From a virus (taxonomy: Duplodnaviria; Heunggongvirae; Uroviricota; Caudoviricetes), in IMG/VR virus record IMGVR_UViG_2671180577_000029: a DNA stretch of 23,771 nucleotides; one strand, written 5' to 3'. The notes beneath the pieces were generated by a model. That model did no database searches. It worked only from the letters and a program-made list of their open reading frames with translations, and was not told the origin of the DNA. Position 1 is the first letter of the stretch; each line of letters begins with the position of its first letter. Of the stretch, positions 1 to 18,014 are shown one piece after another. A program made the position numbers and the translations under genes.

Positions 1-153
1 GTCAATACCAGTGGAACAGGCGGGCATACTTACGCCAGTATTAATATATTCATCAGACCAGCCCGTATACTCAGATGTTTCAGCATCATAATAAAAACAA
101 CGCATATCGCCCGGCACTGTAGCCAGCCCATTTTCATCAAAAACAGGTTTCAT
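1..153 (-). CDS. Tail fiber assembly protein, N-terminal 51 codons only (gene continues past window start)
   Basis: ATG at 153..151 overlaps the H stop codon (TAATG). Frame is open to position 1 and translates MKPVFDENGLATVPGDMRCFYYDAETSEYTGWSDEYINTGVSMPACSTGID. It lies immediately downstream of the tail fiber gene, as G follows H in P2. Confidence 0.6.
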   Translation of the reverse strand, partial: MKPVFDENGLATVPGDMRCFYYDAETSEYTGWSDEYINTGVSMPACSTGID

Positions 154-1436
154 TATTTAGCCCTCACCAGAAAGTTAAATGCAATATTTCGCGGTCTGAC
201 AGCAACAAAATTCACACCATCACCCACAGAGTTACTGGTGAAATTAAATCGTGAAAATCCTGGCTGATTTCCGGCGATGCCATCATGAAAGTTAATTGCG
301 TGTCCCGCACCTCCGCCTATATTCCCGGCAAACTGAGAAAAGTTTGTAGCTGCCTGCCAGCTTAATAATTCGCGACCACCATCTGCACCTCGCCCGTCAT
401 CCCAGATACGAATGAAATCACCGCGGGCCTCAGGTAATACCAGCGAAGGAAACACTTTCGCCAGCACAGGGTAATCAGTGGCAGAGAATTTCGCGCCGTT
501 GAACTTCAAAAACACCATACTGGACCAGCTGTCGATTACAGTATTTGGCATTGCAGCGGACGGCCAGAAGAACGGAACGCCAATAGCTGGAGAACCTTCT
601 CCCAAACCAAGGTATGCGAGAAGACCGGCAACATCCTTTCCACTCAAATGAGTCAGCGTATTGTCCAGCGGTTGTTTACCTGCCAGCGCATTGTTAATGG
701 TGGTGCTGAATTTCGGGTCATTGTTAATGGCTGCGGCAATTTCTTTCAGTGTGTCCAGCGTGGCAGGCGCACCATTAATCAGAGCGGTAATAGCAGCCTG
801 TACAAACGCAGTGGTCGCAATCCGCGTGGTGTTATTTCCTGCATCAGGAGTCGGCGCTTTTGGTTCTCCGGTAAATGTCGGATTATGTTTCTGTGCATAC
901 TGGGTATGAGGATCCTGTGCGGCAATGTGGTTTCTCATCTGGTCATCCACATACAGCCTTAATTCCAGGACTTCATCATCCACGTATTTACGGGTCGCCA
1001 GTACCACCGACGGGTCGATTTTCAGCGTAATAGCTTCGGTATTCGTGACAACCAGAATCATGCGGATAGTCTGGGTACGACCGCTGCCTTCCTGTAACTG
1101 CGGTTTGTACGTTTCCGGGCAGTTCGCCACCGCAATGAGTACGCCTTCATCATCATAAAGCCCAATCTCACGGATCCAGAATCCACCCTCGTTCTCAGGG
1201 ATGATTTGCTCCGCAATAATCTGGCTCTGGTTGTTCGGGTCAACACTCAGAAGATTCAGCGGCGCGATGCGTTTCTGGTTAATCAGTTTTGTCTGTGCCG
1301 GGTCTGGTGTCGGCAAGACACCATTCGCATCACCAACGGCCATTTGCGTCAGATTCAGCTTACTGCCAAGCATCGTCGCGTTAGCCAGCCGTGCTGCGCC
1401 CTGATTAGTCAGAATGGCGTAGTATTTCACTGTCAT
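153..1436 (-). CDS. H: Tail fiber protein (P2 gpH-like), distal duplicated copy, Ala at residue 362
   Basis: 427-aa ORF. N-terminal region (MAVGD...GGFW.RE.GLYDD.G.LIAVAN..E.YKP...EGSGR) matches the conserved P2 gpH N-terminal domain; the C-terminal part is divergent, as expected for a receptor-binding region. Confidence 0.85.
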   Translation of the reverse strand: MTVKYYAILTNQGAARLANATMLGSKLNLTQMAVGDANGVLPTPDPAQTKLINQKRIAPLNLLSVDPNNQSQIIAEQIIPENEGGFWIREIGLYDDEGVLIAVANCPETYKPQLQEGSGRTQTIRMILVVTNTEAITLKIDPSVVLATRKYVDDEVLELRLYVDDQMRNHIAAQDPHTQYAQKHNPTFTGEPKAPTPDAGNNTTRIATTAFVQAAITALINGAPATLDTLKEIAAAINNDPKFSTTINNALAGKQPLDNTLTHLSGKDVAGLLAYLGLGEGSPAIGVPFFWPSAAMPNTVIDSWSSMVFLKFNGAKFSATDYPVLAKVFPSLVLPEARGDFIRIWDDGRGADGGRELLSWQAATNFSQFAGNIGGGAGHAINFHDGIAGNQPGFSRFNFTSNSVGDGVNFVAVRPRNIAFNFLVRAK

Positions 1437-2044
1437 GCGTTTACTCTCAGGTTATCAATTAAATGAATGGCCGAGGCCGGGAAATAATCCCCTCCGACAA
1501 TAATGGCCTCCGGGGTGTAGGGATAAACTGTCAGGGCGTCGCCGTGATAGCATCCCGCACCGGCAAAAATGTTGCCGGTTGTACTTAAACTGATAGCCAG
1601 TCCCGTCAGATGGCGGCTTGCCGGTTTTGCATCAGCAACGAGGCGCTCCAGCTCCTGATACATTTCCTCGGTAATACCCTGCTCAAGCACGCCAACAACG
1701 ATACGGAACGTCCCCGGCTCCTCATTGAGTTGCCACCACTCCCTCACCTCAATCAGATAGCCGAGCGGCTCCACCACACGCCGGATTGCGCCTATAGTGC
1801 CCTTATGGCAGTGAATGAAATACGCATCGCGGATAACAGCGCGTTTTGTCGCTTCCGCCCACTTATCATCCCAGCGGTCAACCGAAAATGACCACGCCAG
1901 CCACGGCAGCAGATTTGCCGGGCAGGTGTCCGGGTTCCACAGCTCACGAATACTGACCGGCGTTTTTTCAATTTCCGCACAGGCTTTTGCAGCAGCGACT
2001 TCAAGCGGTGATGAGCCGGTCGGCAGCAGGCGCAAATCACTCAT
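1433..2044 (-). CDS. I: Baseplate assembly protein I (P2 gpI-like), distal duplicated copy
   Basis: 203-aa ORF beginning MSDLRLLPTGSSPLEVAAAKAC, identical to the copy at 3945..4556; 4-nt overlap with H start. Confidence 0.85.
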   Translation of the reverse strand: MSDLRLLPTGSSPLEVAAAKACAEIEKTPVSIRELWNPDTCPANLLPWLAWSFSVDRWDDKWAEATKRAVIRDAYFIHCHKGTIGAIRRVVEPLGYLIEVREWWQLNEEPGTFRIVVGVLEQGITEEMYQELERLVADAKPASRHLTGLAISLSTTGNIFAGAGCYHGDALTVYPYTPEAIIVGGDYFPASAIHLIDNLRVNA

Positions 2045-2594
2045 CCGAGCCTCCGGTCACGACGCGGTATTCGGTACAGAAAGACGCCTGCGTACTGTTG
2101 AGCACGATGTCGACCAGTGGTGAAGCCAGTTCAACACGCTGCACGCCTTCCACATGCAAAGCGGCATAAATGGCAGACAGACGGATGTCACGCCCCAGCC
2201 GGTGCTGTGCCGTGATGTACGCTTCCAGTTTTTTCACGGCGGCAGCGCGTATGGGTTCGCTTTCGGGACCAGGGTAAAGGTAAAGCGTGGCGTTTATCTG
2301 GTATTCAACAATGGCGGCAGACTGCACGGTCACGCGGTCGGCCACCGGTCTGACGTCCTCGCCATTAAGGGCGTTACGCACCACGGCCAGCAGGTCTTCG
2401 GATGCGACACCATTATTTTCACGTGACAGCACAGAGATGGTGACGCAGGCCGGAGACGGACTGGTGACAGAAATATCGGCGACACGCCCGTCGGCACTGC
2501 GACCATGATACTGATAGGCTCCCACCGACCCGGCGACGCTTAAGCCCTCAAACGCCTGCTGAATACGCAGCCGATAATCGGTGTCAGATTCCAT
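2037..2594 (-). pseudogene. Truncated baseplate J fragment (C-terminal 185 residues of gpJ) created by the duplication junction
   Basis: Identical to residues 118-302 of the full J at 4549..5457. Upstream frame runs into the junction and hits a stop inside duplicated tfa sequence; no Shine-Dalgarno before the internal ATG at 2594. Confidence 0.7.
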
Positions 2595-2664
2595 TACTGC
2601 CGGTGTCGGCGGGATGGTTGAATCATCTGCCGAGCCAGCCCATTTTCATCAAAAACAGGTTTCA

Positions 2665-3948
2665 TTATTTAGCCCTCACCAGAAAGTTAAATGCAATATT
2701 TCGCGGTCTGACAGCAACAAAATTCACACCATCACCCACAGAGTTACTGGTGAAATTAAATCGTGAAAATCCTGGCTGATTTCCGGCGATGCCATCATGA
2801 AAGTTAATTGCGTGTCCCGCACCTCCGCCTATATTCCCGGCAAACTGAGAAAAGTTTGTAGCTTCCTGCCAGCTTAATAATTCGCGACCACCGTCTGCAC
2901 CTCGCCCGTCATCCCAGATACGAATGAAATCACCGCGGGCTTCAGGTAATACCAGCGAAGGAAATACTTTCGCCAGCACAGGATAATCAGTGGCAGAGAA
3001 TTTCGCGCCGTTGAACTTCAAAAACACCATACTGGACCAGCTGTCGATTACAGTATTTGGCATTGCAGCGGACGGCCAGAAGAACGGAACGCCAATAGCT
3101 GGAGAACCTTCTCCCAAACCAAGGTATGCGAGAAGACCGGCAACATCCTTTCCACTCAAATGAGTCAGCGTATTGTCCAGCGGTTGTTTACCTGCCAGCG
3201 CATTGTTAATGGTGGTGCTGAATTTCGGGTCATTGTTAATGGCTGCGGCAATTTCTTTCAGTGTGTCCAGCGTGGCAGGCGCACCATTAATCAGAGCGGT
3301 AATAGCAGCCTGTACAAACGCAGTGGTCGCAATCCGCGTGGTGTTATTTCCTGCATCAGGAGTCGGCGCTTTTGGTTCTCCGGTAAATGTCGGATTATGT
3401 TTCTGTGCATACTGGGTATGAGGATCCTGTGCGGCAATGTGGTTTCTCATCTGGTCATCCACATACAGCCTTAATTCCAGGACTTCATCATCCACGTATT
3501 TACGGGTCGCCAGTACCACCGACGGGTCGATTTTCAGCGTAATAGCTTCGGTATTCGTGACAACCAGAATCATGCGGATAGTCTGGGTACGACCGCTGCC
3601 TTCCTGTAACTGCGGTTTGTACGTTTCCGGGCAGTTCGCCACCGCAATGAGTACGCCTTCATCATCATAAAGCCCAATCTCACGGATCCAGAATCCACCC
3701 TCGTTCTCAGGGATGATTTGCTCCGCAATAATCTGGCTCTGGTTGTTCGGGTCAACACTCAGAAGATTCAGCGGCGCGATGCGTTTCTGGTTAATCAGTT
3801 TTGTCTGTGCCGGGTCTGGTGTCGGCAAGACACCATTCGCATCACCAACGGCCATTTGCGTCAGATTCAGCTTACTGCCAAGCATCGTCGCGTTAGCCAG
3901 CCGTGCTGCGCCCTGATTAGTCAGAATGGCGTAGTATTTCACTGTCAT
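2665..3948 (-). CDS. H: Tail fiber protein (P2 gpH-like), proximal copy, Glu at residue 362
   Basis: 427-aa ORF identical to 153..1436 except Glu instead of Ala at residue 362 (codon 2865..2863 GAA versus GCA). Confidence 0.85.
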   Translation of the reverse strand: MTVKYYAILTNQGAARLANATMLGSKLNLTQMAVGDANGVLPTPDPAQTKLINQKRIAPLNLLSVDPNNQSQIIAEQIIPENEGGFWIREIGLYDDEGVLIAVANCPETYKPQLQEGSGRTQTIRMILVVTNTEAITLKIDPSVVLATRKYVDDEVLELRLYVDDQMRNHIAAQDPHTQYAQKHNPTFTGEPKAPTPDAGNNTTRIATTAFVQAAITALINGAPATLDTLKEIAAAINNDPKFSTTINNALAGKQPLDNTLTHLSGKDVAGLLAYLGLGEGSPAIGVPFFWPSAAMPNTVIDSWSSMVFLKFNGAKFSATDYPVLAKVFPSLVLPEARGDFIRIWDDGRGADGGRELLSWQEATNFSQFAGNIGGGAGHAINFHDGIAGNQPGFSRFNFTSNSVGDGVNFVAVRPRNIAFNFLVRAK

Positions 3949-4556
3949 GCGTTTACTCTCAGGTTATCAATTAAATGAATGGCCGAGGCCGGGAAATAAT
4001 CCCCTCCGACAATAATGGCCTCCGGGGTGTAGGGATAAACTGTCAGGGCGTCGCCGTGATAGCATCCCGCACCGGCAAAAATGTTGCCGGTTGTACTTAA
4101 ACTGATAGCCAGTCCCGTCAGATGGCGGCTTGCCGGTTTTGCATCAGCAACGAGGCGCTCCAGCTCCTGATACATTTCCTCGGTAATACCCTGCTCAAGC
4201 ACGCCAACAACGATACGGAACGTCCCCGGCTCCTCATTGAGTTGCCACCACTCCCTCACCTCAATCAGATAGCCGAGCGGCTCCACCACACGCCGGATTG
4301 CGCCTATAGTGCCCTTATGGCAGTGAATGAAATACGCATCGCGGATAACAGCGCGTTTTGTCGCTTCCGCCCACTTATCATCCCAGCGGTCAACCGAAAA
4401 TGACCACGCCAGCCACGGCAGCAGATTTGCCGGGCAGGTGTCCGGGTTCCACAGCTCACGAATACTGACCGGCGTTTTTTCAATTTCCGCACAGGCTTTT
4501 GCAGCAGCGACTTCAAGCGGTGATGAGCCGGTCGGCAGCAGGCGCAAATCACTCAT
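3945..4556 (-). CDS. I: Baseplate assembly protein I (P2 gpI-like)
   Basis: 203-aa ORF with N-terminus MSDLRLLPTGSSPLEVAAAKAC; lies between J and H as in P2. Confidence 0.9.
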   Translation of the reverse strand: MSDLRLLPTGSSPLEVAAAKACAEIEKTPVSIRELWNPDTCPANLLPWLAWSFSVDRWDDKWAEATKRAVIRDAYFIHCHKGTIGAIRRVVEPLGYLIEVREWWQLNEEPGTFRIVVGVLEQGITEEMYQELERLVADAKPASRHLTGLAISLSTTGNIFAGAGCYHGDALTVYPYTPEAIIVGGDYFPASAIHLIDNLRVNA

Positions 4557-5457
4557 CCGAGCCTCCGGTCACGACGCGGTATTCGGTACAGAAAGACGCC
4601 TGCGTACTGTTGAGCACGATGTCGACCAGTGGTGAAGCCAGTTCAACACGCTGCACGCCTTCCACATGCAAAGCGGCATAAATGGCAGACAGACGGATGT
4701 CACGCCCCAGCCGGTGCTGTGCCGTGATGTACGCTTCCAGTTTTTTCACGGCGGCAGCGCGTATGGGTTCGCTTTCGGGACCAGGGTAAAGGTAAAGCGT
4801 GGCGTTTATCTGGTATTCAACAATGGCGGCAGACTGCACGGTCACGCGGTCGGCCACCGGTCTGACGTCCTCGCCATTAAGGGCGTTACGCACCACGGCC
4901 AGCAGGTCTTCGGATGCGACACCATTATTTTCACGTGACAGCACAGAGATGGTGACGCAGGCCGGAGACGGACTGGTGACAGAAATATCGGCGACACGCC
5001 CGTCGGCACTGCGACCATGATACTGATAGGCTCCCACCGACCCGGCGACGCTTAAGCCCTCAAACGCCTGCTGAATACGCAGCCGATAATCGGTGTCAGA
5101 TTCCATTACTGCCGGTGTCGGCGGGATGGTTGAATCATCTGCCGGGGTGATAATCAGGCGTGTGGTGTTGTAATTGGCACCAATCACATCAAGGTCATTA
5201 CCGGCTGCACAGGCCAGCATCACCGCCCGTGCAGCCTCATTCACACGCTGACGCCAGATAAGCTCACGATAAGCATTTTCCTCCAGCAGTTTGACGAGAG
5301 GCTCAGATTCCAGTGTCAGGGTACGGGCGACCGCCTCCTGCTGGTCTTCCGGGTAAAGGGAAATCAGTGTCGCCTTGCGTTCGGCAAGAATGGTTTCAAA
5401 GTCCAGCTCCTCGACCACATCCGGTGCGGGTAGCTGGTTCAGGTCGATAATCGGCAT
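4549..5457 (-). CDS. J: Baseplate assembly protein J (P2 gpJ-like)
   Basis: 302-aa ORF, the same length as P2 gpJ; follows W and precedes I. Confidence 0.9.
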   Translation of the reverse strand: MPIIDLNQLPAPDVVEELDFETILAERKATLISLYPEDQQEAVARTLTLESEPLVKLLEENAYRELIWRQRVNEAARAVMLACAAGNDLDVIGANYNTTRLIITPADDSTIPPTPAVMESDTDYRLRIQQAFEGLSVAGSVGAYQYHGRSADGRVADISVTSPSPACVTISVLSRENNGVASEDLLAVVRNALNGEDVRPVADRVTVQSAAIVEYQINATLYLYPGPESEPIRAAAVKKLEAYITAQHRLGRDIRLSAIYAALHVEGVQRVELASPLVDIVLNSTQASFCTEYRVVTGGSDE

Positions 5458-5461
5458 GGTT

Positions 5462-5809
5462 TCAACTCACAGGGATGGTTAACGAAAGTGGCTGGCCGGT
5501 GTCGTTGTGCTGGCCGGTTAACGTGACCGTCATTCGCCCGTCAAAACTGCGCGCCGTGGTGACGGATGACAGGGTGACGCGGGGTTCCCATTTCAGCACT
5601 GCCATGTAACAGGCGACTTTAATCTGCAACTCAAGCGCCGGGGTCTGCGGCTGGTCAATCATTGACGCCAGCAACGAGCCGTAATCACGACGCATCACCC
5701 GTGAGCCGACCGGTGTGCGCAGGATATCGCCGATACTCTGGCTGATATGCTCAAGGTCAGTGACAGTCAGGCCATCACTGCGATTCATTCCGAGATAACG
5801 CGCTGTCAT
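5462..5809 (-). CDS. W: Baseplate assembly protein W (gp25/GPW family)
   Basis: 115-aa ORF, same length as P2 gpW; ATGA overlap with V stop. Confidence 0.9.
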   Translation of the reverse strand: MTARYLGMNRSDGLTVTDLEHISQSIGDILRTPVGSRVMRRDYGSLLASMIDQPQTPALELQIKVACYMAVLKWEPRVTLSSVTTARSFDGRMTVTLTGQHNDTGQPLSLTIPVS

Positions 5810-6441
5810 AGAGGTCCCCCTGTTGTGCCGCCACTGTCGCCGGGGTGTTTATGGGTATGCAGTACCTTACCGTTTGATGAGAGTTCACCGCCGGTGTGTT
5901 CAATGTTGCCGCGCATCGTCCCGCCCTTCTGCACTTCCAGCGTGCCGGTAATCAGCCTGTTGGTGCAGACCACCTCCGGTGTGTCCAGGGTGACGCGGGT
6001 TGATGCTTTCACCATGACCACCGGCACCGTGGCAGTAACAGAATCAGAAGCCGTCACGCTGGCCGTTTTAATTCCGCTTACCGTGAGTGCACTGGTTTCG
6101 GGTTCATACTCAATCACCGCCCCGTCAGGGAAACGGATATGCAGGGCATCCGCCGACGCAGACGGCGCGGGGTTATCGCCGGAATAAATCCCCGGCAGAA
6201 CAAACGCCGTGTCAAGTTCACCGCCCACGGCCAGAATCAGCACCTGCTCCCCCACGGAAGGTGCCCACCATGTGCGCGAACGACCGGCACGACAGGTCAG
6301 CCACTGAAGCCAGTCGGTGCACATGCCACCGGTCTGCACACGGCAGCGACCGGCTTTAAGGTTGGTTTCGACGACAAGGCCGGTGCGAATCATGTTGCGC
6401 AGTGCGCGCGCGAGTTCCTGGATATTTGCGAGAGTGTTCAT
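5806..6441 (-). CDS. V: Baseplate spike protein V (P2 gpV-like)
   Basis: 211-aa ORF (P2 gpV is 211 aa), beginning MNTLANIQELARALRNMIRTGLVVE. Confidence 0.9.
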   Translation of the reverse strand: MNTLANIQELARALRNMIRTGLVVETNLKAGRCRVQTGGMCTDWLQWLTCRAGRSRTWWAPSVGEQVLILAVGGELDTAFVLPGIYSGDNPAPSASADALHIRFPDGAVIEYEPETSALTVSGIKTASVTASDSVTATVPVVMVKASTRVTLDTPEVVCTNRLITGTLEVQKGGTMRGNIEHTGGELSSNGKVLHTHKHPGDSGGTTGGPL

Positions 6442-6453
6442 AACGGGAAGGAT

Positions 6454-6475
6454 GCCGCCGGGTCATACCGGCGGC
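6454..6475 (-). promoter_or_regulatory. GC-rich hairpin (8-bp stem GCCGCCGG/CCGGCGGC, 6-nt loop) in the S-V intergenic region
   Basis: Perfect inverted repeat read directly from the sequence, 15 nt upstream of the V ATG and downstream of the S stop. Could be a terminator for the O-to-S operon or a 5' UTR structure for V; a TGT-N10-ACA dyad lies just upstream at 6491..6506. Confidence 0.35.
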
Positions 6476-6507
6476 AATGTAACGATGAGGTGTCGGGAAT
6501 GGCACAA

Positions 6508-6960
6508 CTAACGGTCGAGGTGAGCCAGGATAATCTCTTCAATCATCTGCACATCCTCACCGGTAAAGCCGAGCAGAGGACGCACCGGATAATCAATTTT
6601 CTTACCGTCTTTCCGGTTTTCTTCCGACAGACCAAACTGATGCACACTGGCGATTTTCGGTGACTTCCCGCCGTAAAACTCCATTGATGCCTGTTCAGGG
6701 CTGGCGCGGATATGCAAAAAACGACTGGTGATAAGTTTCGCAAACATTTTTCGCTTAACACGACCGGTCTTTTTTCTGGCGCTCTGCTGCTGGCGTGGCG
6801 CGTAGGGTGTGCCGTCCGGGGCTTTCTGTGCCATCACCCGACGCTGCTGACTCTGCCGCAGACGTTTCGCCAGTTCGGCACTCAGTCGCCGACGCCCTGA
6901 CGGTGACAGCGACTCAATCAGTCCGGTCAGCCGGTCTTCAAAACGCTTAAACTCATTCAT
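6508..6960 (-). CDS. S: Tail completion protein S (P2 gpS-like)
   Basis: 150-aa ORF, same length as P2 gpS, beginning MNEFKRFEDRLTGLIESL. Confidence 0.9.
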   Translation of the reverse strand: MNEFKRFEDRLTGLIESLSPSGRRRLSAELAKRLRQSQQRRVMAQKAPDGTPYAPRQQQSARKKTGRVKRKMFAKLITSRFLHIRASPEQASMEFYGGKSPKIASVHQFGLSEENRKDGKKIDYPVRPLLGFTGEDVQMIEEIILAHLDR

Positions 6961-7420
6961 CCCACTTGCTCACCAGTTCGCCATTGATATAAAGCTCCAT
7001 CGGGCGGGTGACCGGCTCCGGCGGCGTGGGTTCCGGGATATTCTTCACATGCAGCGCGCCGTCCACCTCACTGACCAGCGTGCGCTCGGTCAGCATCAGG
7101 CTGATGCTGATATCAAAGCTGCTGTCATTGTTGATGTCTGCATAAAACGTGAAGCCCTTTTTCTGGCCTTCGTCAGTGGTCATGATGTCGGGCTGATTTT
7201 CCCGCAGCCACGCCAGCACCGGCACGATGAGCAGGTCAAAATCACCGGTAAAGTCGGTCACAATGACATTGAGCGTGTAACGCTTTTCAAATGACAGCGA
7301 CGTCGCCAGTGTGGAGGCAATACTCCCGTTATCCACGAATATCCGCAGCATCTCGGGACTGGTTTTCAGCACCGTGACGGCATCAGTCAGCGCCCTGCGC
7401 AGGCTGTCGGGTTTGAGCAT
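6953..7420 (-). CDS. R: Tail completion protein R (P2 gpR-like)
   Basis: 155-aa ORF, same length as P2 gpR, beginning MLKPDSLRRALTDAVTVLKT. Confidence 0.9.
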   Translation of the reverse strand: MLKPDSLRRALTDAVTVLKTSPEMLRIFVDNGSIASTLATSLSFEKRYTLNVIVTDFTGDFDLLIVPVLAWLRENQPDIMTTDEGQKKGFTFYADINNDSSFDISISLMLTERTLVSEVDGALHVKNIPEPTPPEPVTRPMELYINGELVSKWDE

Positions 7421-7673
7421 CGTTTTCGTCCTGACAGTGTTTAATCATTTTTACCTGGCTGGCACAGCGTGCCAGCGCGTTCTCAAGCTGCCGGATATCG
7501 GCACTTAAATCACCGTTCGTCTCCGGGTCACTGCCCGGCATCGGGCAAAGGCTCACTTTCGGGCAGGCGTTGTGGACAATCACTGGCGTCAGTGCAGGCC
7601 GGGCGCTGGTGCAACCGGCGCACAGCATCAGGCAGGTCAGCGCCGTACCAGCGGCGAAAATCTTCGTTTTCAT
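7383..7673 (-). CDS. lysC: LysC, Rz1-like outer-membrane spanin lipoprotein, partly embedded in lysB
   Basis: 96-aa ORF in an alternative frame, overlapping the lysB 3' end and the R 5' end. N-terminal signal with Cys-containing lipobox-like LMLCAGC; Pro-rich, as in Rz1-type o-spanins. Confidence 0.75.
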   Translation of the reverse strand: MKTKIFAAGTALTCLMLCAGCTSARPALTPVIVHNACPKVSLCPMPGSDPETNGDLSADIRQLENALARCASQVKMIKHCQDENDAQTRQPAQGAD

Positions 7674-7953
7674 TCAGTAACCTCGTGATGGTTTTCTCGC
7701 GCTGTGCTTCACGCTTCGCGGCGTTTTCCAGTTCCTGACGCAGTGCAACCTGCGCCAGCTCGTTTTTATCTGCCCTGGTGAGCGCAACATGAAACTGTTT
7801 TTTCAGCATGGTGATGGTCATCTGCTGCCCGCTGGCGACATTGTTTGCCCTGTCCAGCGAGGCGCGCAGGCTGGCGTTTTCATGCTTCGCCAGAAACAGC
7901 CCCGCCACCGCCAGTGATAACAACACAACCAGCACAATCATCAGTTTTGACAT
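7528..7953 (-). CDS. lysB: LysB, Rz-like inner-membrane spanin
   Basis: 141-aa ORF with an N-terminal transmembrane segment (MSKLMIVLVVLLSLAVAGLFLA) followed by a charged, coiled-coil-like region; P2 lysB position and length. Confidence 0.85.
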   Translation of the reverse strand: MSKLMIVLVVLLSLAVAGLFLAKHENASLRASLDRANNVASGQQMTITMLKKQFHVALTRADKNELAQVALRQELENAAKREAQREKTITRLLNENEDFRRWYGADLPDAVRRLHQRPACTDASDCPQRLPESEPLPDAGQ

Positions 7954-8366
7954 GGTTCCCGCCCCTCAAAACGCTGACGGCAGGCCGTACGTATCAGCCG
8001 GAAGAACAGCGACGCCACGAGGTAAATCAGCGCAGTAAAAATCCACCCGGCAGCGACCAGCGAGATAAACGTCGCCACCATCACTACCAGAGCCACTGAC
8101 CGCCTGCGCCACGGCACCGGCTGCAAAAACAGCGCCGTGACAATCTTCACGGCCAGCGATTCCGGCGGCAGCTCCCGCCCGTAGCGTTCCAGCACATACT
8201 CAGTGGCATACACGCCGACACCACCGGCAACCACACAGATAACCGTCACCAGAATCGCCCAGGCGGCGACAAAATTGACGGCCACGCTCTGCGGGTAAAT
8301 CAGGGACAGTGCCAGCATCAGCGCCAGCGACACGTTCAGCATCAGTGAAAGGGATAATTTCTTCAT
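7941..8366 (-). CDS. lysA: LysA, lysis timing membrane protein
   Basis: 141-aa ORF with multiple hydrophobic segments; P2 lysA position and length. Confidence 0.85.
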   Translation of the reverse strand: MKKLSLSLMLNVSLALMLALSLIYPQSVAVNFVAAWAILVTVICVVAGGVGVYATEYVLERYGRELPPESLAVKIVTALFLQPVPWRRRSVALVVMVATFISLVAAGWIFTALIYLVASLFFRLIRTACRQRFEGREPCQN

Positions 8367-8380
8367 GGTATTTACTCCGT

Positions 8381-8878
8381 TTAAGCCGGTACGCCGCCGG
8401 CGGTACGCCAGACGGTGACCAGTTTTTCCAGTGAATGCTCACGCTGACCGTAACCGGCACCCGGCAGGGACGCCCAGATATTGCGACAGCGTGAAATGGC
8501 GCGCTCAATGCGTCCCGCCCGGATGTCATCCAGCGCACCGCGTTCGCGGATCAACTGAATGGCGAGTCTGTCCTGTGACAACGGACTGAAATCCGGCAGG
8601 GCAAGCTGTTTGCGGTAATGCGGCCAGAACAGGTAAAGCTGCTGATAGCGACCGGAGGCCGTGGATTTTTCACCGCGACGGTTAAACACCTTCGCCGGTC
8701 GACCATGTGCGAACGGGTGGTCACTGTAGTCGGTGAAGATTTCCGGCTTTCCATCCAGTCCGGTGACTATCACGTCATAGCCCCGGTTTTTCGTCAGCGG
8801 ATGGTTCGCCGTCCCTTCGGACACGGCCAGCATGTCGAGAAAGGCGGCGATATTCTGATGCGTGTTAATTACCGGCAT
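8381..8878 (-). CDS. K: Endolysin (P2 gpK-like lysozyme)
   Basis: 165-aa ORF beginning MPVINTHQNIAAFLDMLAVSEGT; same length and position as P2 K. Confidence 0.9.
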   Translation of the reverse strand: MPVINTHQNIAAFLDMLAVSEGTANHPLTKNRGYDVIVTGLDGKPEIFTDYSDHPFAHGRPAKVFNRRGEKSTASGRYQQLYLFWPHYRKQLALPDFSPLSQDRLAIQLIRERGALDDIRAGRIERAISRCRNIWASLPGAGYGQREHSLEKLVTVWRTAGGVPA

Positions 8879-9159
8879 TACGGTTTCCCCCTGCCCTTAA
8901 AGCGGCGCTGAATGGCAATCTCAATCACCTGATAACCGGCGATACCCAGCATGGAGCCGATGCCGCACACCGCAGGCAGTGACAGGTCAGGAAACTGCAC
9001 CAGAACAACACCGGCAACCATCGAGACAAAACCACCGAGCAACATGCGCCCGATAAACAGACGCGGGGTGATGGGTTCACCACCGGCAAGCACCTTGCCG
9101 ACAACAATCAGCACCCCAATCATGAAAAGCGACAGGACGCTTTTTTCTTCTGCTGTCAT
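8878..9159 (-). CDS. Y: Holin (P2 gpY-like)
   Basis: 93-aa ORF with transmembrane segments and a charged C-terminus (RRFKGRGKP); P2 Y position and length. Confidence 0.9.
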   Translation of the reverse strand: MTAEEKSVLSLFMIGVLIVVGKVLAGGEPITPRLFIGRMLLGGFVSMVAGVVLVQFPDLSLPAVCGIGSMLGIAGYQVIEIAIQRRFKGRGKP

Positions 9160-9162
9160 GCG

Positions 9163-9366
9163 TTACTCCCACAGATTGACAGTTTCAGCCACGGGCGCGG
9201 TCTGAACGTCGGGCAGTTCGACGGCGGTGCCGTGTGGCAGCACCGCACCCAGTTCAGCCAGTCCCGGATTTGCGGCGAGCACGGTCTCAACCACGCCCTC
9301 AGTGCGCCCGTAATACCGGACACAAATGGCGTCGAGCGTGTCGCCCTGTAGCGCAAAGGTCTTCAT
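9163..9366 (-). CDS. X: Tail protein X (P2 gpX-like)
   Basis: Start set at the internal ATG 9366..9364 (MKTFALQGDTLDAICVRYYG), giving 67 aa as in P2 gpX; the ORF-track start at 9435 would overlap L. Confidence 0.85.
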   Translation of the reverse strand: MKTFALQGDTLDAICVRYYGRTEGVVETVLAANPGLAELGAVLPHGTAVELPDVQTAPVAETVNLWE

Positions 9367-9875
9367 CAGATTTGACTCACGATGCAGCGCGGCTTGTCCT
9401 GGATACGCGCCACCGCCCAGCGCATATCCCGCCACAGTTCATCAATGGTGCTGTCAATGCTGTCAGCCTTCTTGTCGCCTTTCGCACTGGCATCCACGCC
9501 GCGATAACGCTCATAAAGCGACGCGGTCGCCATCGCACACACGGCGCGCTCGTAGTAAAAAACTTTGATGCTTTCACCGTCGATATCGTCCGCCGGGACG
9601 TCCGCCAGACGCGTAAAACCGGCGGCAATTTTCTGTTCGCGGTACTCGTACAGCTCCGCATTCGTCTCCGCCATGCCTGACTTGATGGCCTCACGCAGAC
9701 GAGCGGGGGCGACGGTCTGCTCAAGGCGCATACGTTCCCGGACGCGCTTCGGGTCGATATCGGGGAAAAAGAACGTGTTTTTAATCACCGGCTCGTCGCC
9801 TGCCGGTTGCGGGATGACCACCGTACCCTCACCGGACACGGGAGCCTCCTTTCGCGGAATAATCAGCGTCATCAT
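9366..9875 (-). CDS. L: Head completion/stabilisation protein L (P2 gpL-like)
   Basis: Start set at ATG 9875..9873 (MMTLIIPRKEAPVSGEG) with AGAGG 5 nt upstream, giving 169 aa as in P2 gpL. Confidence 0.88.
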   Translation of the reverse strand: MMTLIIPRKEAPVSGEGTVVIPQPAGDEPVIKNTFFFPDIDPKRVRERMRLEQTVAPARLREAIKSGMAETNAELYEYREQKIAAGFTRLADVPADDIDGESIKVFYYERAVCAMATASLYERYRGVDASAKGDKKADSIDSTIDELWRDMRWAVARIQDKPRCIVSQI

Positions 9876-9974
9876 GACTACCTCTGAAAAGTCGGGCGGT
9901 GGACGCCGGTGCAGTGTCAGGTGATTCACCCTCACTGACCGGCGTGCCGCCCTGGCGCGGGGCGCATTCGGTTG

Positions 9975-10718
9975 TTAACTGGCTTTCTTTTTCGGGCGTC
10001 CACGTTTTGCCGGTGCCACGCTCCGGGTCTTACGCGGGGCGCGGGTGGCCGCTTTTGGCTGCGGCTCCGGCTTCGGTTTCAGTTCCCGCTCCAGTCGTTC
10101 AATCTCTTTTTTGACGCCTGCCTGACAGTCGAGCTGTGTCGCACGTTGCAGGTGCGCCAGCGCACCGGCGGCATCACCACCGTCACGCAGAAACAGACCG
10201 GTAATTTTGTGCAGCTTTGCGCGCACTTCATCAGGCATGTCAGCCGTGGCGGTCAGTTCAAGGGTCTCCGTCAGCAGGCGGGTATCCACAGACTCACCGG
10301 CAGCGTGAGCGCGCATGGCCGCAAGCGCTACCTCCTCGGTGAACATGTACGGCGGGGTACGGCGGTGTTTACCCGGCATGGTCAGACCGTACTTCAGGGC
10401 ATAACGGGCAATCTCCAGCGCACCGGCAATATCGCCGGTATCCAGACGCCACAGCATGACCGTCATCAGAATGTCATCCTGTGCACCTTTGCCCTGCTCC
10501 AGCACGCCGTTCACCCACGGCAACCAGAACGGCAGCAGTTCGCGTTTTTTCGCGGCCTTCAGCTCTTTTGAATAAATCGCTTTCAGTGTGCGCTGGTCTG
10601 CGGCGAGCTTAACCAGCATCTGCTCATAGACAGTTGCATGTCGCAGCGGGGCGGCTTCCCGCTGCGCGGTCATCGCTGCCGAGACCCGCATCATGTGGCG
10701 CTGTGCGGGACTCGTCAT
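9975..10718 (-). CDS. M: Terminase endonuclease (small) subunit M
   Basis: 247-aa ORF beginning MTSPAQRHMMRVSAAMTAQREAAPLRH; same length as P2 gpM; basic Lys/Arg-rich C-terminus. Confidence 0.9.
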   Translation of the reverse strand: MTSPAQRHMMRVSAAMTAQREAAPLRHATVYEQMLVKLAADQRTLKAIYSKELKAAKKRELLPFWLPWVNGVLEQGKGAQDDILMTVMLWRLDTGDIAGALEIARYALKYGLTMPGKHRRTPPYMFTEEVALAAMRAHAAGESVDTRLLTETLELTATADMPDEVRAKLHKITGLFLRDGGDAAGALAHLQRATQLDCQAGVKKEIERLERELKPKPEPQPKAATRAPRKTRSVAPAKRGRPKKKAS

Positions 10719-10721
10719 CGG

Positions 10722-11795
10722 TTACGCTCCCGGCTCTGCGGTCGCCTTAGCCGGTGTGGAGAAATCACCGACCTTAATTTTTTCCACCAGACAACCGGCG
10801 GCGTAGTCTTCCACCACGTAATCAATGTTCATTGACTCGTAGTTCTCCACTCGGTCGAGTTTCGGGTTTTCCTCAATCACGCGGCGATGGCTGTCATCCA
10901 TGTAGTAGATGGACAGGTTTTCCAGCTTCGTGATGAGCATCGCATCCGCCGGGAAGTACGGGACGCGTACCGCCGGCAGGTTACCGATGCGTTTCTGGCT
11001 GATGATGACGTCAGCGGCCAGCATTTCGCTGTTGTCCTGCTCCTTGTTGACGATGGGGAAATATTTGTCCGCCAGCAGCTGACGCCCCACAATCACCACA
11101 AGGTCAGGGTCTTCCTGATACCACGGCTCAATCAGGTTGTTGGTCGCATCCATCACCAGTGCATCGAGGCTGGCATAATCACCGCTCTTACCCACGCGGA
11201 TGACCTCAGAGGTGGTGTGCCCTTCCTCGTCAGTGACCTTGCTCATCACGCGCGCCGGGGCTTCATTGCGGTATTTCTGCAGCCAGCCGACCGCCACATC
11301 CTGCAGCATCGGATTGCTGCTGCGGTCAGAGGTTTCGGCACGCCTCACGCCGTTAAAACCGGCCATGATGAAATCAAGGGACTGGCGTTTGATAATGGCG
11401 TTACGGACACGGAGCTGGAAATCCTGATAACGCGCCCACAGGTCCAGCGTTTTGTAGCGGATATAAAAATCGAAGTTAATCTGGTCGCATTCGTACTTGT
11501 TTGACGCCAGCTTCGAGAAGTCCTTCGGCTGACGCTCGGTGCCACCGGCGGTGTCGGTGGTGCTGGCGATGGAGCCGGTGACACCGATGCCAATTTTTTC
11601 CCCTTTCATTTCGCTGACCGGCACAATGTTGATGCGGGTCAGAAAGTCAGAGGACTCCTGCATGGTGTTCATCAGGGTCTGGGTGACCGACGGTTCAACG
11701 GTGAATTTTTTCGACACATCACCGGCGTCGATGCCGTTCAGTTCGGCAACACGGGACAGGTAAGCATTAAATTTAAAGCGGGTTTCCTGGCGCAT
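10722..11795 (-). CDS. N: Major capsid protein N
   Basis: 357-aa ORF, same length as P2 gpN, beginning MRQETRFKFNAYLSRVAELNG. Confidence 0.92.
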   Translation of the reverse strand: MRQETRFKFNAYLSRVAELNGIDAGDVSKKFTVEPSVTQTLMNTMQESSDFLTRINIVPVSEMKGEKIGIGVTGSIASTTDTAGGTERQPKDFSKLASNKYECDQINFDFYIRYKTLDLWARYQDFQLRVRNAIIKRQSLDFIMAGFNGVRRAETSDRSSNPMLQDVAVGWLQKYRNEAPARVMSKVTDEEGHTTSEVIRVGKSGDYASLDALVMDATNNLIEPWYQEDPDLVVIVGRQLLADKYFPIVNKEQDNSEMLAADVIISQKRIGNLPAVRVPYFPADAMLITKLENLSIYYMDDSHRRVIEENPKLDRVENYESMNIDYVVEDYAAGCLVEKIKVGDFSTPAKATAEPGA

Positions 11796-11853
11796 AGTTT
11801 TTCCTGAAATTAAGGGTTAATCGTGAAGGTTTTCCCGGACTGACTGACGCCGG

Positions 11854-12708
11854 TCAGCAGTTCGTCATCAGGGCGTCACCGCCACCACCGGTGGCCTTGC
11901 TGCGGCGCTGCTGGGTCAGACTTTCGGTGTGGTCGAGACTGTTTTTCAGGCGGGTGAATGCCTGGCTGGTTTCATCCGCCCTGTCAGTCACCTCCTGCTT
12001 AAGTGCGGAAAAGGCGGTTTCCATCTCAGAGAGGCGCTGCTCAGTGGCGCTCAGTTTTTCCTGCACATGTTCAGCAACAGCGGTCACCGCTTCATGCACG
12101 TCATTCAGACGGGCGTCATCGCTGGCCTGTTTGCGGCCAAAAATGGATTTCACCTTTTCGGTCAGGGCGGTGAACACGGTTTCAGGCAGGTCTTCAAATT
12201 CCAGCTCAACAGGCGTTGCCACTGAAATCAGGTTTTCAGGGCTTAATTTGAAGCGGTTCAGGGGGTTGTGTTTTGCCGTGCGGCAGAATTCCAGGTATTC
12301 CGTGCCGAGGCTTGCCGGGTCATCGGTGACGGCCAGCCCCACCAGATAACATTTGCCGGTATTGGCAAAGTTCGGCTGAATTTCCATTGAGGTGTAGACT
12401 TTCTGCGCGGCCTTGTTCATCGCGATAAGGTCATCGGTCGGGGTGATTTTCGCAAACAGCGCCCATTTGCCTTTCAGCGCCGAATCGTCGTCAATCTTTT
12501 CGGCCTTCAGTTCGACCACATCGCCATAACGTTTAAAAATACCGTCAGGCAGGATGCCGCGCAGATGTTCCAGGTTAATGCGGCAACCGTAGACACGCGG
12601 GTCAAAGGTTTCAGCCATTTCCTGAATATCCTGCGCACTGATGACACGCCCGTCACAGGTGTCACCCTCAACGCCGATACGAAAGAATTTTGAGACTTTT
12701 TTTGCCAT
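11854..12708 (-). CDS. O: Capsid scaffolding protein O
   Basis: Start set at ATG 12708..12706 (MAKKVSKFFRIGVEGDTCDGR), giving 284 aa as in P2 gpO; the longer ORF-track start at 12774 is not supported. Confidence 0.88.
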   Translation of the reverse strand: MAKKVSKFFRIGVEGDTCDGRVISAQDIQEMAETFDPRVYGCRINLEHLRGILPDGIFKRYGDVVELKAEKIDDDSALKGKWALFAKITPTDDLIAMNKAAQKVYTSMEIQPNFANTGKCYLVGLAVTDDPASLGTEYLEFCRTAKHNPLNRFKLSPENLISVATPVELEFEDLPETVFTALTEKVKSIFGRKQASDDARLNDVHEAVTAVAEHVQEKLSATEQRLSEMETAFSALKQEVTDRADETSQAFTRLKNSLDHTESLTQQRRSKATGGGGDALMTNC

Positions 12709-12881
12709 TGTCAGGAGTCCTGAATAGTGATTAGAGGAGTCACATGTCGGCATCAGTTTCCCGACGATACGCATCCTCCGCCATCAGTCCCGGATGGCTT
12801 ATCACTGACACAACAGCACCTTAGCGAATCGCGGGGCGCGACTCAGTAGCCTTGCCGTGTATTCATCACGGCGAGGTATTC
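12709..12881. promoter_or_regulatory. Divergent late-promoter region between O (minus) and P (plus)
   Basis: 173-bp non-coding spacer between divergently oriented operons, as for the P2 late promoters PO and PP. I could not find a canonical TGT-N12-ACA activator dyad here, so elements are not mapped. Confidence 0.4.
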
Positions 12882-14654
12882 ATGACCATCACCACAGACA
12901 CCACTCTTTTACACGACCCGCGTCGTCAGGCGGCGCTGCTGTACTGGCAGGGGTTTTCCGTGCCGCAGATTGCCGCCATGTTGCAGATGAAACGCCCGAC
13001 GGTGCAGAGCTGGAAACAGCGCGACGGCTGGGACAGCGTTGCCCCCATCAGCCGTGTCGAAATGAGTCTGGAAGCGCGGCTGACCCAGCTCATCATCAAA
13101 CCGCAGAAAACCGGCGGTGACTTCAAGGAAATTGACCTGCTAGGACGCCAGATTGAACGACTGGCACGGGTCAACCGCTACAGTCAGACCGGCAACGAGG
13201 CAGACCTTAATCCGAACGTCGCTAACCGCAACAAAGGCGGGCGTCGCAAACCGAAAAAGAATTTTTTCAGTGACGAGGCCATCGAAAAGCTGGAGCAGAT
13301 TTTCTTTGAGCAGTCTTTCGACTATCAGTTGCACTGGTATCGCGCCGGGCTTGAGCACCGCATCCGCGATATCCTGAAATCCCGCCAGATTGGCGCAACG
13401 TTTTATTTTTCCCGCGAGGCGCTGCTGCGCGCCCTGAAAACCGGCCATAACCAGATTTTTCTGTCGGCCAGTAAAACGCAGGCGTATGTGTTCCGTGAAT
13501 ACATCATCGCCTTTGCCCGGCTGGTTGACGTTGACCTGACCGGTGACCCGATTGTCCTGGGCAATAACGGCGCAAAACTGATTTTTCTCGGCACCAACTC
13601 CAACACCGCACAGAGCCATAACGGCGACCTGTACGTCGACGAGATTTTCTGGATCCCGAATTTTCAGGTACTGCGTAAGGTGGCATCAGGTATGGCCTCA
13701 CAGAGTCACCTGCGTTCGACCTATTTCTCCACCCCGTCCACGCTGGCGCACGACGCCTACCCGTTCTGGTCGGGTGAACTGTTTAACCGGGGACGCGCCA
13801 GCGCCGCCGAACGCGTGGAAATCGACGTCAGTCATAACGCCCTTGCCGGTGGACTTCTCTGTGCGGACGGCCAGTGGCGGCAGATTGTCACCATTGAGGA
13901 CGCCCTGAAAGGCGGCTGCACGCTGTTCGACATTGAGCAGCTCAAACGCGAAAACAGCGCCGACGATTTTAAAAACCTGTTCATGTGTGAATTTGTTGAC
14001 GACAAGGCGTCGGTGTTCCCGTTCGAGGAGCTGCAACGCTGCATGGTCGACACGCTGGAAGAATGGGAAGACTATGCGCCGTTTGCCGCGAATCCGTTCG
14101 GCTCCCGCCCGGTATGGATTGGTTACGACCCGTCACACCGTGGCGACAGCGCCGGATGCGTGGTACTGGCACCGCCGGTGGTGGCCGGTGGCAAATTCAG
14201 AATACTTGAGCGTCACCAGTGGAAAGGCATGGACTTTGCCACTCAGGCTGAATCCATCCGCAAACTCACCGAGAAATACAACGTCGAATACATCGGTATT
14301 GATGCCACCGGCCTCGGTGTCGGCGTGTTCCAGCTCGTGCGCTCGTTCTATCCCGCCGCACGCGACATCCGCTACACGCCGGAAATGAAAACCGCAATGG
14401 TGCTCAAGGCCAAAGACGTTATCCGCCGTGGCTGTCTGGAATATGACGTCAGCGCCACCGACATCACCAGCTCGTTTATGGCTATCCGCAAGACCATGAC
14501 CAGCAGCGGACGCAGTGCCACCTATGAGGCCAGCCGCAGCGAGGAAGCCAGCCACGCCGACCTCGCCTGGGCGACCATGCACGCCCTGTTAAATGAGCCA
14601 CTCACCGCCGGTATCAGCACCCCGCTGACATCCACCATTCTGGAGTTTTACTGA
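12882..14654 (+). CDS. P: Terminase ATPase (large) subunit P
   Basis: Start set at ATG 12882 (MTITTDTTLLHDPRRQAALLY) with GAGG 5 nt upstream, giving 590 aa as in P2 gpP. Confidence 0.92.
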   Translation: MTITTDTTLLHDPRRQAALLYWQGFSVPQIAAMLQMKRPTVQSWKQRDGWDSVAPISRVEMSLEARLTQLIIKPQKTGGDFKEIDLLGRQIERLARVNRYSQTGNEADLNPNVANRNKGGRRKPKKNFFSDEAIEKLEQIFFEQSFDYQLHWYRAGLEHRIRDILKSRQIGATFYFSREALLRALKTGHNQIFLSASKTQAYVFREYIIAFARLVDVDLTGDPIVLGNNGAKLIFLGTNSNTAQSHNGDLYVDEIFWIPNFQVLRKVASGMASQSHLRSTYFSTPSTLAHDAYPFWSGELFNRGRASAAERVEIDVSHNALAGGLLCADGQWRQIVTIEDALKGGCTLFDIEQLKRENSADDFKNLFMCEFVDDKASVFPFEELQRCMVDTLEEWEDYAPFAANPFGSRPVWIGYDPSHRGDSAGCVVLAPPVVAGGKFRILERHQWKGMDFATQAESIRKLTEKYNVEYIGIDATGLGVGVFQLVRSFYPAARDIRYTPEMKTAMVLKAKDVIRRGCLEYDVSATDITSSFMAIRKTMTSSGRSATYEASRSEEASHADLAWATMHALLNEPLTAGISTPLTSTILEFY

Positions 14655-15688
14655 TGAGCAAGAAAAAAGGGAAAACACCGCAACCTGCGGCAAAAAAAAT
14701 GACCGCCAGCGCCCCGAAAATGGAAGCATTCACCTTTGGTGAGCCGGTGCCGGTACTCGACCGCCGTGACATTCTGGATTACGTCGAGTGCATCAGTAAC
14801 GGCAGATGGTATGAGCCACCGGTCAGCTTTACTGGTCTGGCAAAAAGCCTGCGTGCTGCCGTGCATCACAGCTCACCAATTTACGTCAAACGCAATATTC
14901 TGGCCTCGACATTTATCCCGCATCCGTGGCTTTCTCAGCAGGATTTCAGCCGCTTTGTGCTGGATTTTCTGGTGTTCGGTAATGCGTTTCTGGAAAAGCG
15001 TTACAGCACTACCGGTAAGGTCATCAGACTGGAAACCTCACCGGCAAAATATACCCGCCGTGGGGTGGAGGAGGATGTTTACTGGTGGGTGCCGTCCTTC
15101 AACGAGCCGACACCTTTCACGCCCGGCTCCGTGTTTCACCTGCTGGAGCCGGATATTAATCAGGAGCTGTACGGCCTGCCGGAATATCTCAGCGCCCTTA
15201 ACTCTGCCTGGCTGAATGAGTCGGCCACGCTGTTCCGCCGCAAGTATTACGAAAACGGCGCACATGCCGGATACATCATGTACGTCACTGATGCCGTGCA
15301 GGATCGCAACGATATCGAAATGCTTCGCGAAAACATGGTTAAGTCGAAAGGCCGCAATAACTTTAAAAATCTGTTTCTCTATGCCCCACAGGGGAAAGCC
15401 GACGGCATTAAAATTATCCCGCTCAGTGAAGTGGCAACGAAGGACGATTTTTTTAATATCAAAAAAGCCAGCGCCGCTGACCTGCTGGACGCGCACCGCA
15501 TCCCCTTTCAGTTGATGGGGGGCAAGCCGGAGAACGTCGGGTCGCTGGGTGATATTGAGAAAGTGGCAAAGGTCTTTGTCCGCAATGAGCTTATCCCGTT
15601 ACAGGACAGGATCCGCGAGATAAACGGCTGGCTCGGTCAGGAGGTCATCCGCTTTAAAAACTACTCACTGGACACTGACAACGGCTGA
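14654..15688 (+). CDS. Q: Portal protein Q
   Basis: 344-aa ORF, same length as P2 gpQ; start overlaps the P stop (TGATG). Confidence 0.92.
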   Translation: MSKKKGKTPQPAAKKMTASAPKMEAFTFGEPVPVLDRRDILDYVECISNGRWYEPPVSFTGLAKSLRAAVHHSSPIYVKRNILASTFIPHPWLSQQDFSRFVLDFLVFGNAFLEKRYSTTGKVIRLETSPAKYTRRGVEEDVYWWVPSFNEPTPFTPGSVFHLLEPDINQELYGLPEYLSALNSAWLNESATLFRRKYYENGAHAGYIMYVTDAVQDRNDIEMLRENMVKSKGRNNFKNLFLYAPQGKADGIKIIPLSEVATKDDFFNIKKASAADLLDAHRIPFQLMGGKPENVGSLGDIEKVAKVFVRNELIPLQDRIREINGWLGQEVIRFKNYSLDTDNG

Positions 15689-15693
15689 ACATC

Positions 15694-15715
15694 GCCGCCT
15701 GCGGGCGGCTTTTTT
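15694..15715 (+). terminator. Rho-independent terminator after Q
   Basis: GCCGCC-tgcg-GGCGGC hairpin (15694..15709) followed by a run of six T (15710..15715). Confidence 0.7.
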
Positions 15716-15857
15716 ACAACCCGCCATCACGCCCTCACACGCTCACCACCGCACAAAACAGCCCGCAGACACACCAACGCCCCGGCTAACAATCTAAACG
15801 CCATCACGACGCGCTCAGACGCTGAAAAAATAAAATCAGCACCACCGCCAGCGCGCA

Positions 15858-15876
15858 GTGCTTTCCCCGCCTCGCC
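15858..15876. other. cos cohesive-end site (19 nt)
   Basis: Plus strand reads GTGCTTTCCCCGCCTCGCC, the reverse complement of the P2 19-nt cohesive end GGCGAGGCGGGGAAAGCAC (recalled from the literature, not looked up); it lies about 170 bp past Q, as at the P2 left end. Confidence 0.8.
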
Positions 15877-16037
15877 CGCCCGCTTCATGGGGTGTTTTTA
15901 ATGCAGGTGCAATACCGCTTTTGAGCCACGCCCGTTCTGGCGGACGCACGGCCGGAACATGCAACTCCGGCACATGCAAAACCATGCACATATTGCACGC
16001 AGAAAGATAAATGCCAAAATACCTAAATCAACTTCCA

Positions 16038-17876: not shown

Positions 17877-17988
17877 TCCTCACCTTTAAAGCACTTAACA
17901 AACAACCATGGCAAACAATACCAAACTGCAAGTAACAACTAAATATATACAGTACGAAACTATCTAAGATCTCGTGAATTTTTGCCAT
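17842..17988 (-). CDS. Possible small hydrophobic ORF (48 aa) between A and the cargo gene
   Basis: ATG 17988..17986 overlaps the A stop (TAATG). Translation MAKIHEILDSFVLYIFSCYLQFGIVCHGCLLSALKVRNERVRCFFYFS contains one hydrophobic stretch. It overlaps the cargo gene start by 35 nt, and its ATG sits inside a candidate -10 element, so it may not be a real gene. Confidence 0.2.
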   Translation of the reverse strand: MAKIHEILDSFVLYIFSCYLQFGIVCHGCLLSALKVRNERVRCFFYFS

Positions 17989-18014
17989 TATATCCACTCC
18001 ATTACCGTTGAGAA
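17987..18014 (-). promoter_or_regulatory. Candidate sigma70 promoter for the cargo gene
   Basis: Minus strand reads TTCTCA (18014..18009), a 16-nt spacer, then TATAAT (17992..17987, a perfect -10) overlapping the A stop codon. Predicted start near 17980 would give a roughly 100-nt leader to the ATG at 17876. Confidence 0.35.

Follow-up and report, generated by a model that had tools for sequence, protein, structure and literature searches.

That unrelated phages exchange their tail-fibre tips in mosaic fashion, as among P2 H, Mu S and P1 S, was reportedly described by Haggard-Ljungquist in 1992 and by Sandmeier in 1994. Tips can also be switched by invertible segments of the Gin/Cin/Pin/Hin type, such as Mu G, P1 C, e14 P and that of phage pro483, and inversion of such a cassette has been experimentally shown in P2-like prophages of E. 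coli (PMC4272514). To these two biological routes towards a new tail fibre must be added a third that owes nothing to the phage and everything to the software. In the Sanger assembly pipeline SSPACE is followed by 120 iterations of GapFiller, both of them greedy and, by the account of the pipeline's authors, open to false joins (PMC5320598). For GapFiller to close a gap, the extensions from its two sides must overlap and the length inserted must fit the estimated gap, failing which the attempt is carried into the next iteration (PMC3446322). Here we consider all three in the light of a P2-like prophage sequence of 23,771 nt (the whole stretch analysed, hereafter the window), in which the tail-fibre gene H appears twice, as two alleles. 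This duplicated tail fibre is almost certainly not a real feature of the phage.

The apparent repeat consists of direct copies at 121..2632 and 2633..5144, with a period of 2512 bp and differences at five sites only. On the minus strand each copy takes in 32 nt from the start of the tail-fibre assembly gene, H in full (427 aa), gene I and a portion of J. In what follows P is the prophage of the window, Q' is a divergent second P2-like prophage, pieces B and A are the parts of the source contig to the left and right of position 2633, and hap1 and hap2 are the five-site haplotypes of copies 1 and 2. The features of the window are:

1..152, minus strand: about 50 codons from the 5' end of the P2 G-like gene for tail-fibre assembly (197 aa in relatives; E308 annotation)
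121..2632: 'copy 1', which with bases 1-120 makes up piece B (contig nt 1-2634) and has the lineage's normal alleles (hap1)
153..1436, minus strand: tail-fibre gene H, 427 aa, Ala362, PF12571 over residues 1-150; the prophage's genuine allele
352..471, minus strand: five-site patch of copy 1, hap1
597..622: crossover-site-like arm, TTCTCCCAAACCAAGGTATGCGAGAA, repeated at 3109-3134; boundary of the constant and variable parts of H
1433..2044, minus strand: gene I (baseplate/tail), 203 aa, PF09684, in piece B
2037..2632, minus strand: 3' part of gene J (baseplate), PF26078 and PF26079, cut at the end of piece B
2037..2594: 185-aa open reading frame called in the truncated J'
2633..2633: scaffold gap, N in the source record and A in the window
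2634..5144: 'copy 2', with which piece A opens on its left at single-copy coordinate 122; probable chimera of P sequence bearing Q' alleles at five sites
2864..2983, minus strand: five-site patch of copy 2, hap2, matching the alleles of prophage Q'
2665..3948, minus strand: 'copy 2' of H, 427 aa, Glu362; probable assembly chimera
3945..4556 and 4549..5457, minus strand: genes I and J respectively, full length and continuous with the rest of the prophage
up to 23771: rest of the prophage, with W, V, S, R, lysis, capsid, terminase, portal, replication and integrase genes

The first-pass annotation of this DNA placed the differences between the copies at 352, 381, 429, 453 and 471, with identity everywhere else, and in the window as supplied this is accurate. 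On the plus strand the bases of copy 1 and copy 2 at these sites are G/T, A/G, C/T, C/T and G/A, giving G, A, C, C, G for hap1 and T, G, T, T, A for hap2. Its account of the affected residues was likewise exact: four changes are synonymous and in the third position of minus-strand H codons (Y322 TAC/TAT, V328 GTG/GTA, E336 GAG/GAA and D352 GAT/GAC), and the fifth, GCA/GAA, is A362E, the one residue by which the two H proteins would differ. Confinement of five differences to 120 of 2512 bp has a p of ~2.5e-5 under uniform placement. Both residues at position 362 are common in the family (71 Ala and 37 Glu among the 120 homologues listed), and all five sites are common standing polymorphisms which occur across many genomes in many recombinant haplotypes.

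The closest complete genome is that of E. coli E308, which is 100% identical to window 1..2632 and 99.4% identical to the remainder. There, and in many other genomes, the locus is single-copy, with the order H, tfa, inverted tfa', inverted alternative tip, serine invertase and sheath. An inverted repeat in E308 (I1; 32 nt, 78% complementary, arms 1707 nt apart) has one of its arms at window 597-622, inside the tail-fibre gene and coincident with the breakpoints of homology, since similarity to Mu-like cassettes stops at 621 and similarity to other Peduovirus H genes starts at ~591-597. The inverted alternative tip (106-111 aa) and its 142-aa PF02413 chaperone stand in the opposite orientation, and next to the cassette, in E308 and in other relatives, is an invertase of 197 aa with PF00239 and PF02796; both the invertase, which is just to the left, and the second repeat arm are outside the window. 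The whole tip-and-chaperone cassette is ~1.75 kb (E308 locus L003, 7203-9622), recurs in two Mu-like prophages (L098 and L099), and has the same layout in characterised Peduovirus phages such as pro483, where a DNA invertase is annotated. In gene content and order the relatives of P conform to the Gin/Cin/Pin/Hin-type segments. As one arm lies inside H at 597-622, the five sites fall within the invertible receptor-binding cassette, downstream of the crossover site, and the earlier placing of the patch in the receptor-binding part of H is upheld. The real host-range device of this family is the known serine-invertase cassette with its crossover site at 597-622, and that switch is unrelated to the five differences except for their location inside the shared cassette.

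The intact 427-aa H of this lineage appears in the RefSeq annotation of E308 as two partial pseudogenes (record 4542924-4544207; window 153-1436), a call which presumably reflects the missing middle part of longer P2-type fibres. As for the remainder of the prophage, almost all of its differences from that of E308 are found in 6617-7600 and 9283-14249, where divergence is ~2% in otherwise identical sequence; two patches of this kind indicate what would be homologous-recombination mosaicism, as is typical of phages.

Exact protein matches place the window on the NCBI draft contig CYAX01000039.1 (GCA_001285865.1; 51.1 kb), accession numbers for which the literature yielded nothing relevant, and we compared that record with the window base by base. 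On the left the contig extends 2 nt beyond window base 1; over 13.9 kb the two agree except at a single position, 2633, the first base of 'copy 2', which is N in the contig and A in the window and is the sole N in the first 13.9 kb of the record. The window's A is an imputed base. It appears that ambiguous bases were substituted before release of the window, a practice by which scaffold gaps can become seemingly clean junctions. Since the source record has N at 2633, the 'junction' is a one-N scaffold join and not a sequenced junction. The scaffold runs from piece B (window -1..2632) through the N to piece A (single-copy coordinate 122 onward), setting the interior of J (..CATCTGCCG) against tfa (..GCCAGCCC) with no microhomology at the junction, and the same sequence is repeated on both sides of the gap character.

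Against this background we consider it very improbable that the window records a real 2.5-kb tandem duplication of G'-H-I-J', one H of which received a conversion tract of 120-470 bp from the cassette of a co-resident Q'. Were it so, one late operon would express two receptor-binding alleles differing at residue 362. The order B-N-A with a near-zero gap is the expected output of read pairs spanning the junction of such a duplication, and the prophage, estimated from the E308 map at ~29.8 kb, would grow to ~32.3 kb and still be shorter than the 33.6 kb of the P2 genome. Yet a sequenced junction from the end of one unit to the start of the next is what a duplication should possess, and this one consists of an N; none of 5,426 complete E. 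coli genomes has a place spanning it. The exact junction pattern is likewise absent from the GTDB species-representative genomes and from IMG/VR, which is weak evidence given that the patterns carried the imputed A. A short-read graph, moreover, would collapse two true copies and not print them twice.

The closest relatives tell a simpler story. A sister isolate from the same ENA batch (L009) is identical over 11,436 nt to the de-duplicated window except at the five sites, where it has the copy-1 alleles, and two further prophages (L013 and L014) add only one difference beyond the five; all three are single-copy with hap1. Exact matches to the copy-1 H protein occur in 102 index blocks, single-copy in all places shown. 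By comparison, the full-length copy-2 H with E362 and the 185-aa truncated J' product were each found, as exact proteins among the indexed assemblies, in the source contig only. Products unique to one assembly, when near-identical genomes are normal, are the mark of an artefact, and the absence of both the junction reading frame and the E362 fibre from all other indexed assemblies counts further against a real duplication. It also leaves little room for the earlier suggestion that two fibre alleles in one prophage might vary host range, the more so as the alleles differ by a single residue.

Where, then, do the copy-2 alleles come from? Exact hap2 was found in the 501-aa H of the divergent P2-like prophage Q' (L016; exact protein P0122), as well as in L090 and in E. 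coli B2C. Two sister assemblies of the batch encode P0122: GCA_001286445.1, which also contains prophage P at 99.98% identity, and GCA_001286145.1. From -1 to 592, clean Q' prophages (L103 and L105-L107) depart from hap1 only by 471 G>A, 453 C>T, 429 C>T, 381 A>G, 352 G>T and 121 A>G, the next P/Q' difference being at -2. At all five patch sites the base in copy 2 is that of Q'. A donor allele with every one of the variants is thus present in the lineage, as gene conversion would demand, and this point speaks for the duplication-and-conversion reading. The source isolate itself would, on the strength of the sister assemblies in which Q' was seen, be expected to carry Q'.

Other donors were less satisfactory. 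The defective prophage of E. coli B2C has hap2 but also differs at 216 and 521, and is a poorer fit than Q'. A BLAST search of the patch region against the E308 prophage returned no second copy, and hence no donor within the prophage such as the alternative tip Sv'. The 249-aa proteins with the exact copy-2 tip (P0004 and P0006) are fibres of Mu-like prophages in unrelated assemblies. The Q' locus L016 was entertained as a natural mosaic boundary at 121 and rejected, as it has an N at that position. The scaffold that contains L016 and L090 (IMGVR_UViG_2698536341_000022) has the hap2 tip twice, ~7 kb apart, with a single N after the first copy, beyond which the tail genes do not have the orientation expected of them. 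This scaffold probably represents one more mis-scaffolded invertible region, again from that strain collection.

Prophages P and Q' are only ~66% identical in their structural genes J and I and almost identical in the variable end of H and the tail-fibre assembly gene, with runs of 122, 230 and 121 nt shared without a mismatch around the five-SNP bubble. Such a contrast, ~66% identity in J and I yet just six differing sites from -1 to 592, resembles the tip exchange of P2 H, Mu S and P1 S and agrees with the known modular exchange of tail-fibre tips. Unlike an event in a duplicated gene, it is ancestral variation between two prophages. The one solid biological point to emerge, and an ordinary one, is that two divergent P2-like prophages of a single E. 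coli lineage share an almost identical invertible tip-and-chaperone cassette.

The five variants, so compared, are best described as the allele of another prophage's diverged tail-fibre gene and not as a second copy in P. The first-pass annotation was right to see a diverged allele in place of random error, the alleles being those of the tail-fibre gene of Q'. Its further proposal of duplicated copies and gene conversion inside one prophage gives way before the one-N join, the single-copy hap1 state of near-identical prophages and the Q' origin of the alleles. The linkage of the variants to copy position has in effect dissolved with it, judged from the assemblies.

The ends of the pieces are as informative as their contents. 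Piece A ends at 122, adjoining the P/Q' SNP at 121, and the contig ends at -1, adjoining the P/Q' SNP at -2. These endpoints are not independent of the branch points of an assembly graph, and a real duplication would need chance coincidence to place both piece ends exactly at P/Q' SNPs. The same break also recurs in related assemblies: in GCA_001286445.1 and GCA_001286145.1, and likewise in the IMG/VR locus L016, the Q' piece stops at the equivalent of base 122 and a single N comes next (loci L104, L108 and L016). Sister assemblies without any duplication therefore have the same break, which again argues against a real one. Window 6038-20150 is matched at 100% identity by ERR178207_23, an independent contig from Logan, which by coordinate arithmetic ends at single-copy position 663, that is, 30 nt short of the first P/Q' mismatch at 693 (693-30). 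Logan graphs use a k-mer size of 31, and an end 30 nt from that mismatch is what is expected of a 31-mer graph containing Q'. Beside the right end of piece B (2632) we found no polymorphic or Q'-shared site, J being only ~66% identical. Because copy 2 has the alleles of Q' and the pieces end beside P/Q' SNPs, copy 2 is taken to be a chimera.

Taken together, these comparisons make it very probable that the tandem duplication is a scaffolding and gap-filling artefact of a short-read draft assembly and not a structure of the phage genome. The events may be pictured as follows. The lineage contains two P2-like prophages, P (that of the window, integrated next to cpxP) and Q', whose almost identical cassettes would create short common stretches around a five-SNP bubble in the assembly graph. 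The main P contig, piece A, would have passed along the bubble's Q' arm and come to a stop at 122, before the ambiguous site at 121. Piece B, the true P arm from -1 to 2632, would have been linked to piece A by read pairs, and the negative or zero gap between them written as a single N. Most likely the edge of piece B was then walked rightwards through the P-specific sequence 593-2632, repeating what piece A already contained, by greedy read-walking into a gap that did not exist. This over-extension of piece B by ~2 kb is a proposed mechanism, and the exact software steps behind the join are reconstructed from its outcome. We infer from the accession batch and the single-N signature that the assembly came from the Sanger Velvet/SSPACE/GapFiller pipeline.

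False duplications made by SSPACE and GapFiller at scaffold gaps provide the nearest parallel. As in those, a single N separates two pieces repeating the same sequence, the ends fall at ambiguous bases of paralogues, the break recurs across sister assemblies of one batch, and a greedy rule can go on extending without closing the gap (PMC3446322, PMC5320598). The present case departs from the usual ones in its overlap, which at 2.5 kb is large, and the software is in this instance surmised.

A very improbable alternative is that the culture was heterogeneous, being mostly P with hap1 and in part a subpopulation of P that had recombined with Q' and acquired hap2, both versions having been kept and abutted by the scaffolder. 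Both haplotypes do have P-specific flanks in the scaffold, the P and Q' cassettes are near-identical over >470 bp and would be a good substrate for homologous exchange, and many recombinant five-site haplotypes exist in the population. Against it, sister assemblies break at the same site without a P-hap2 variant. Furthermore, the stretches common to P and Q' that flank the patch measure 230 and 121 nt, and with k<=121 no k-mer must join hap2 to a P-specific base. The linkage of P to hap2 therefore requires no real molecule, and a mixed culture is unnecessary. Vanishingly improbable is hypermutation of the receptor-binding tip, for instance by a diversity-generating retroelement, which the clustering of changes towards the C-terminus, where the fibre binds its receptor, might suggest. 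It is refuted by a mixed, mostly synonymous pattern (C>T, G>A, G>A, T>C and C>A on the coding strand from copy 1 to copy 2) with four of five changes in synonymous third positions and no specificity for adenine. The presence of all five sites as standing polymorphisms in many genomes and an E308 prophage annotation without a reverse transcriptase also speak against it.

With the join most probably the work of an assembler, its lesson is one of caution. A single N silently made into a base is enough for a scaffold join to mimic a clean tandem duplication complete with a 'gene-conversion patch'. Where co-resident prophages have near-identical receptor-binding cassettes, short-read assembly can be expected to yield chimeric tail-fibre alleles, and such chimeras, of which the full-length E362 H is a probable example, can enter protein databases as unique variants.

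Two other features of this group of prophages deserve mention. Between the portal gene and replication gene A, the cargo hotspot of P2, the window encodes on the minus strand (16038-17876) a 612-aa DUF7380 protein with a match in PADLOC to PDC-S39, a candidate defence family (E 6e-73). A related prophage (L010, GCA_023520215.1) has a two-gene insert at 5505-7407, between tail genes S and V. One gene codes for a protein with a PycTM domain and the other for a protein of 450 aa that gives weak cyclase hits, and from its domain content the insert looks like a Pycsar-type defence system.
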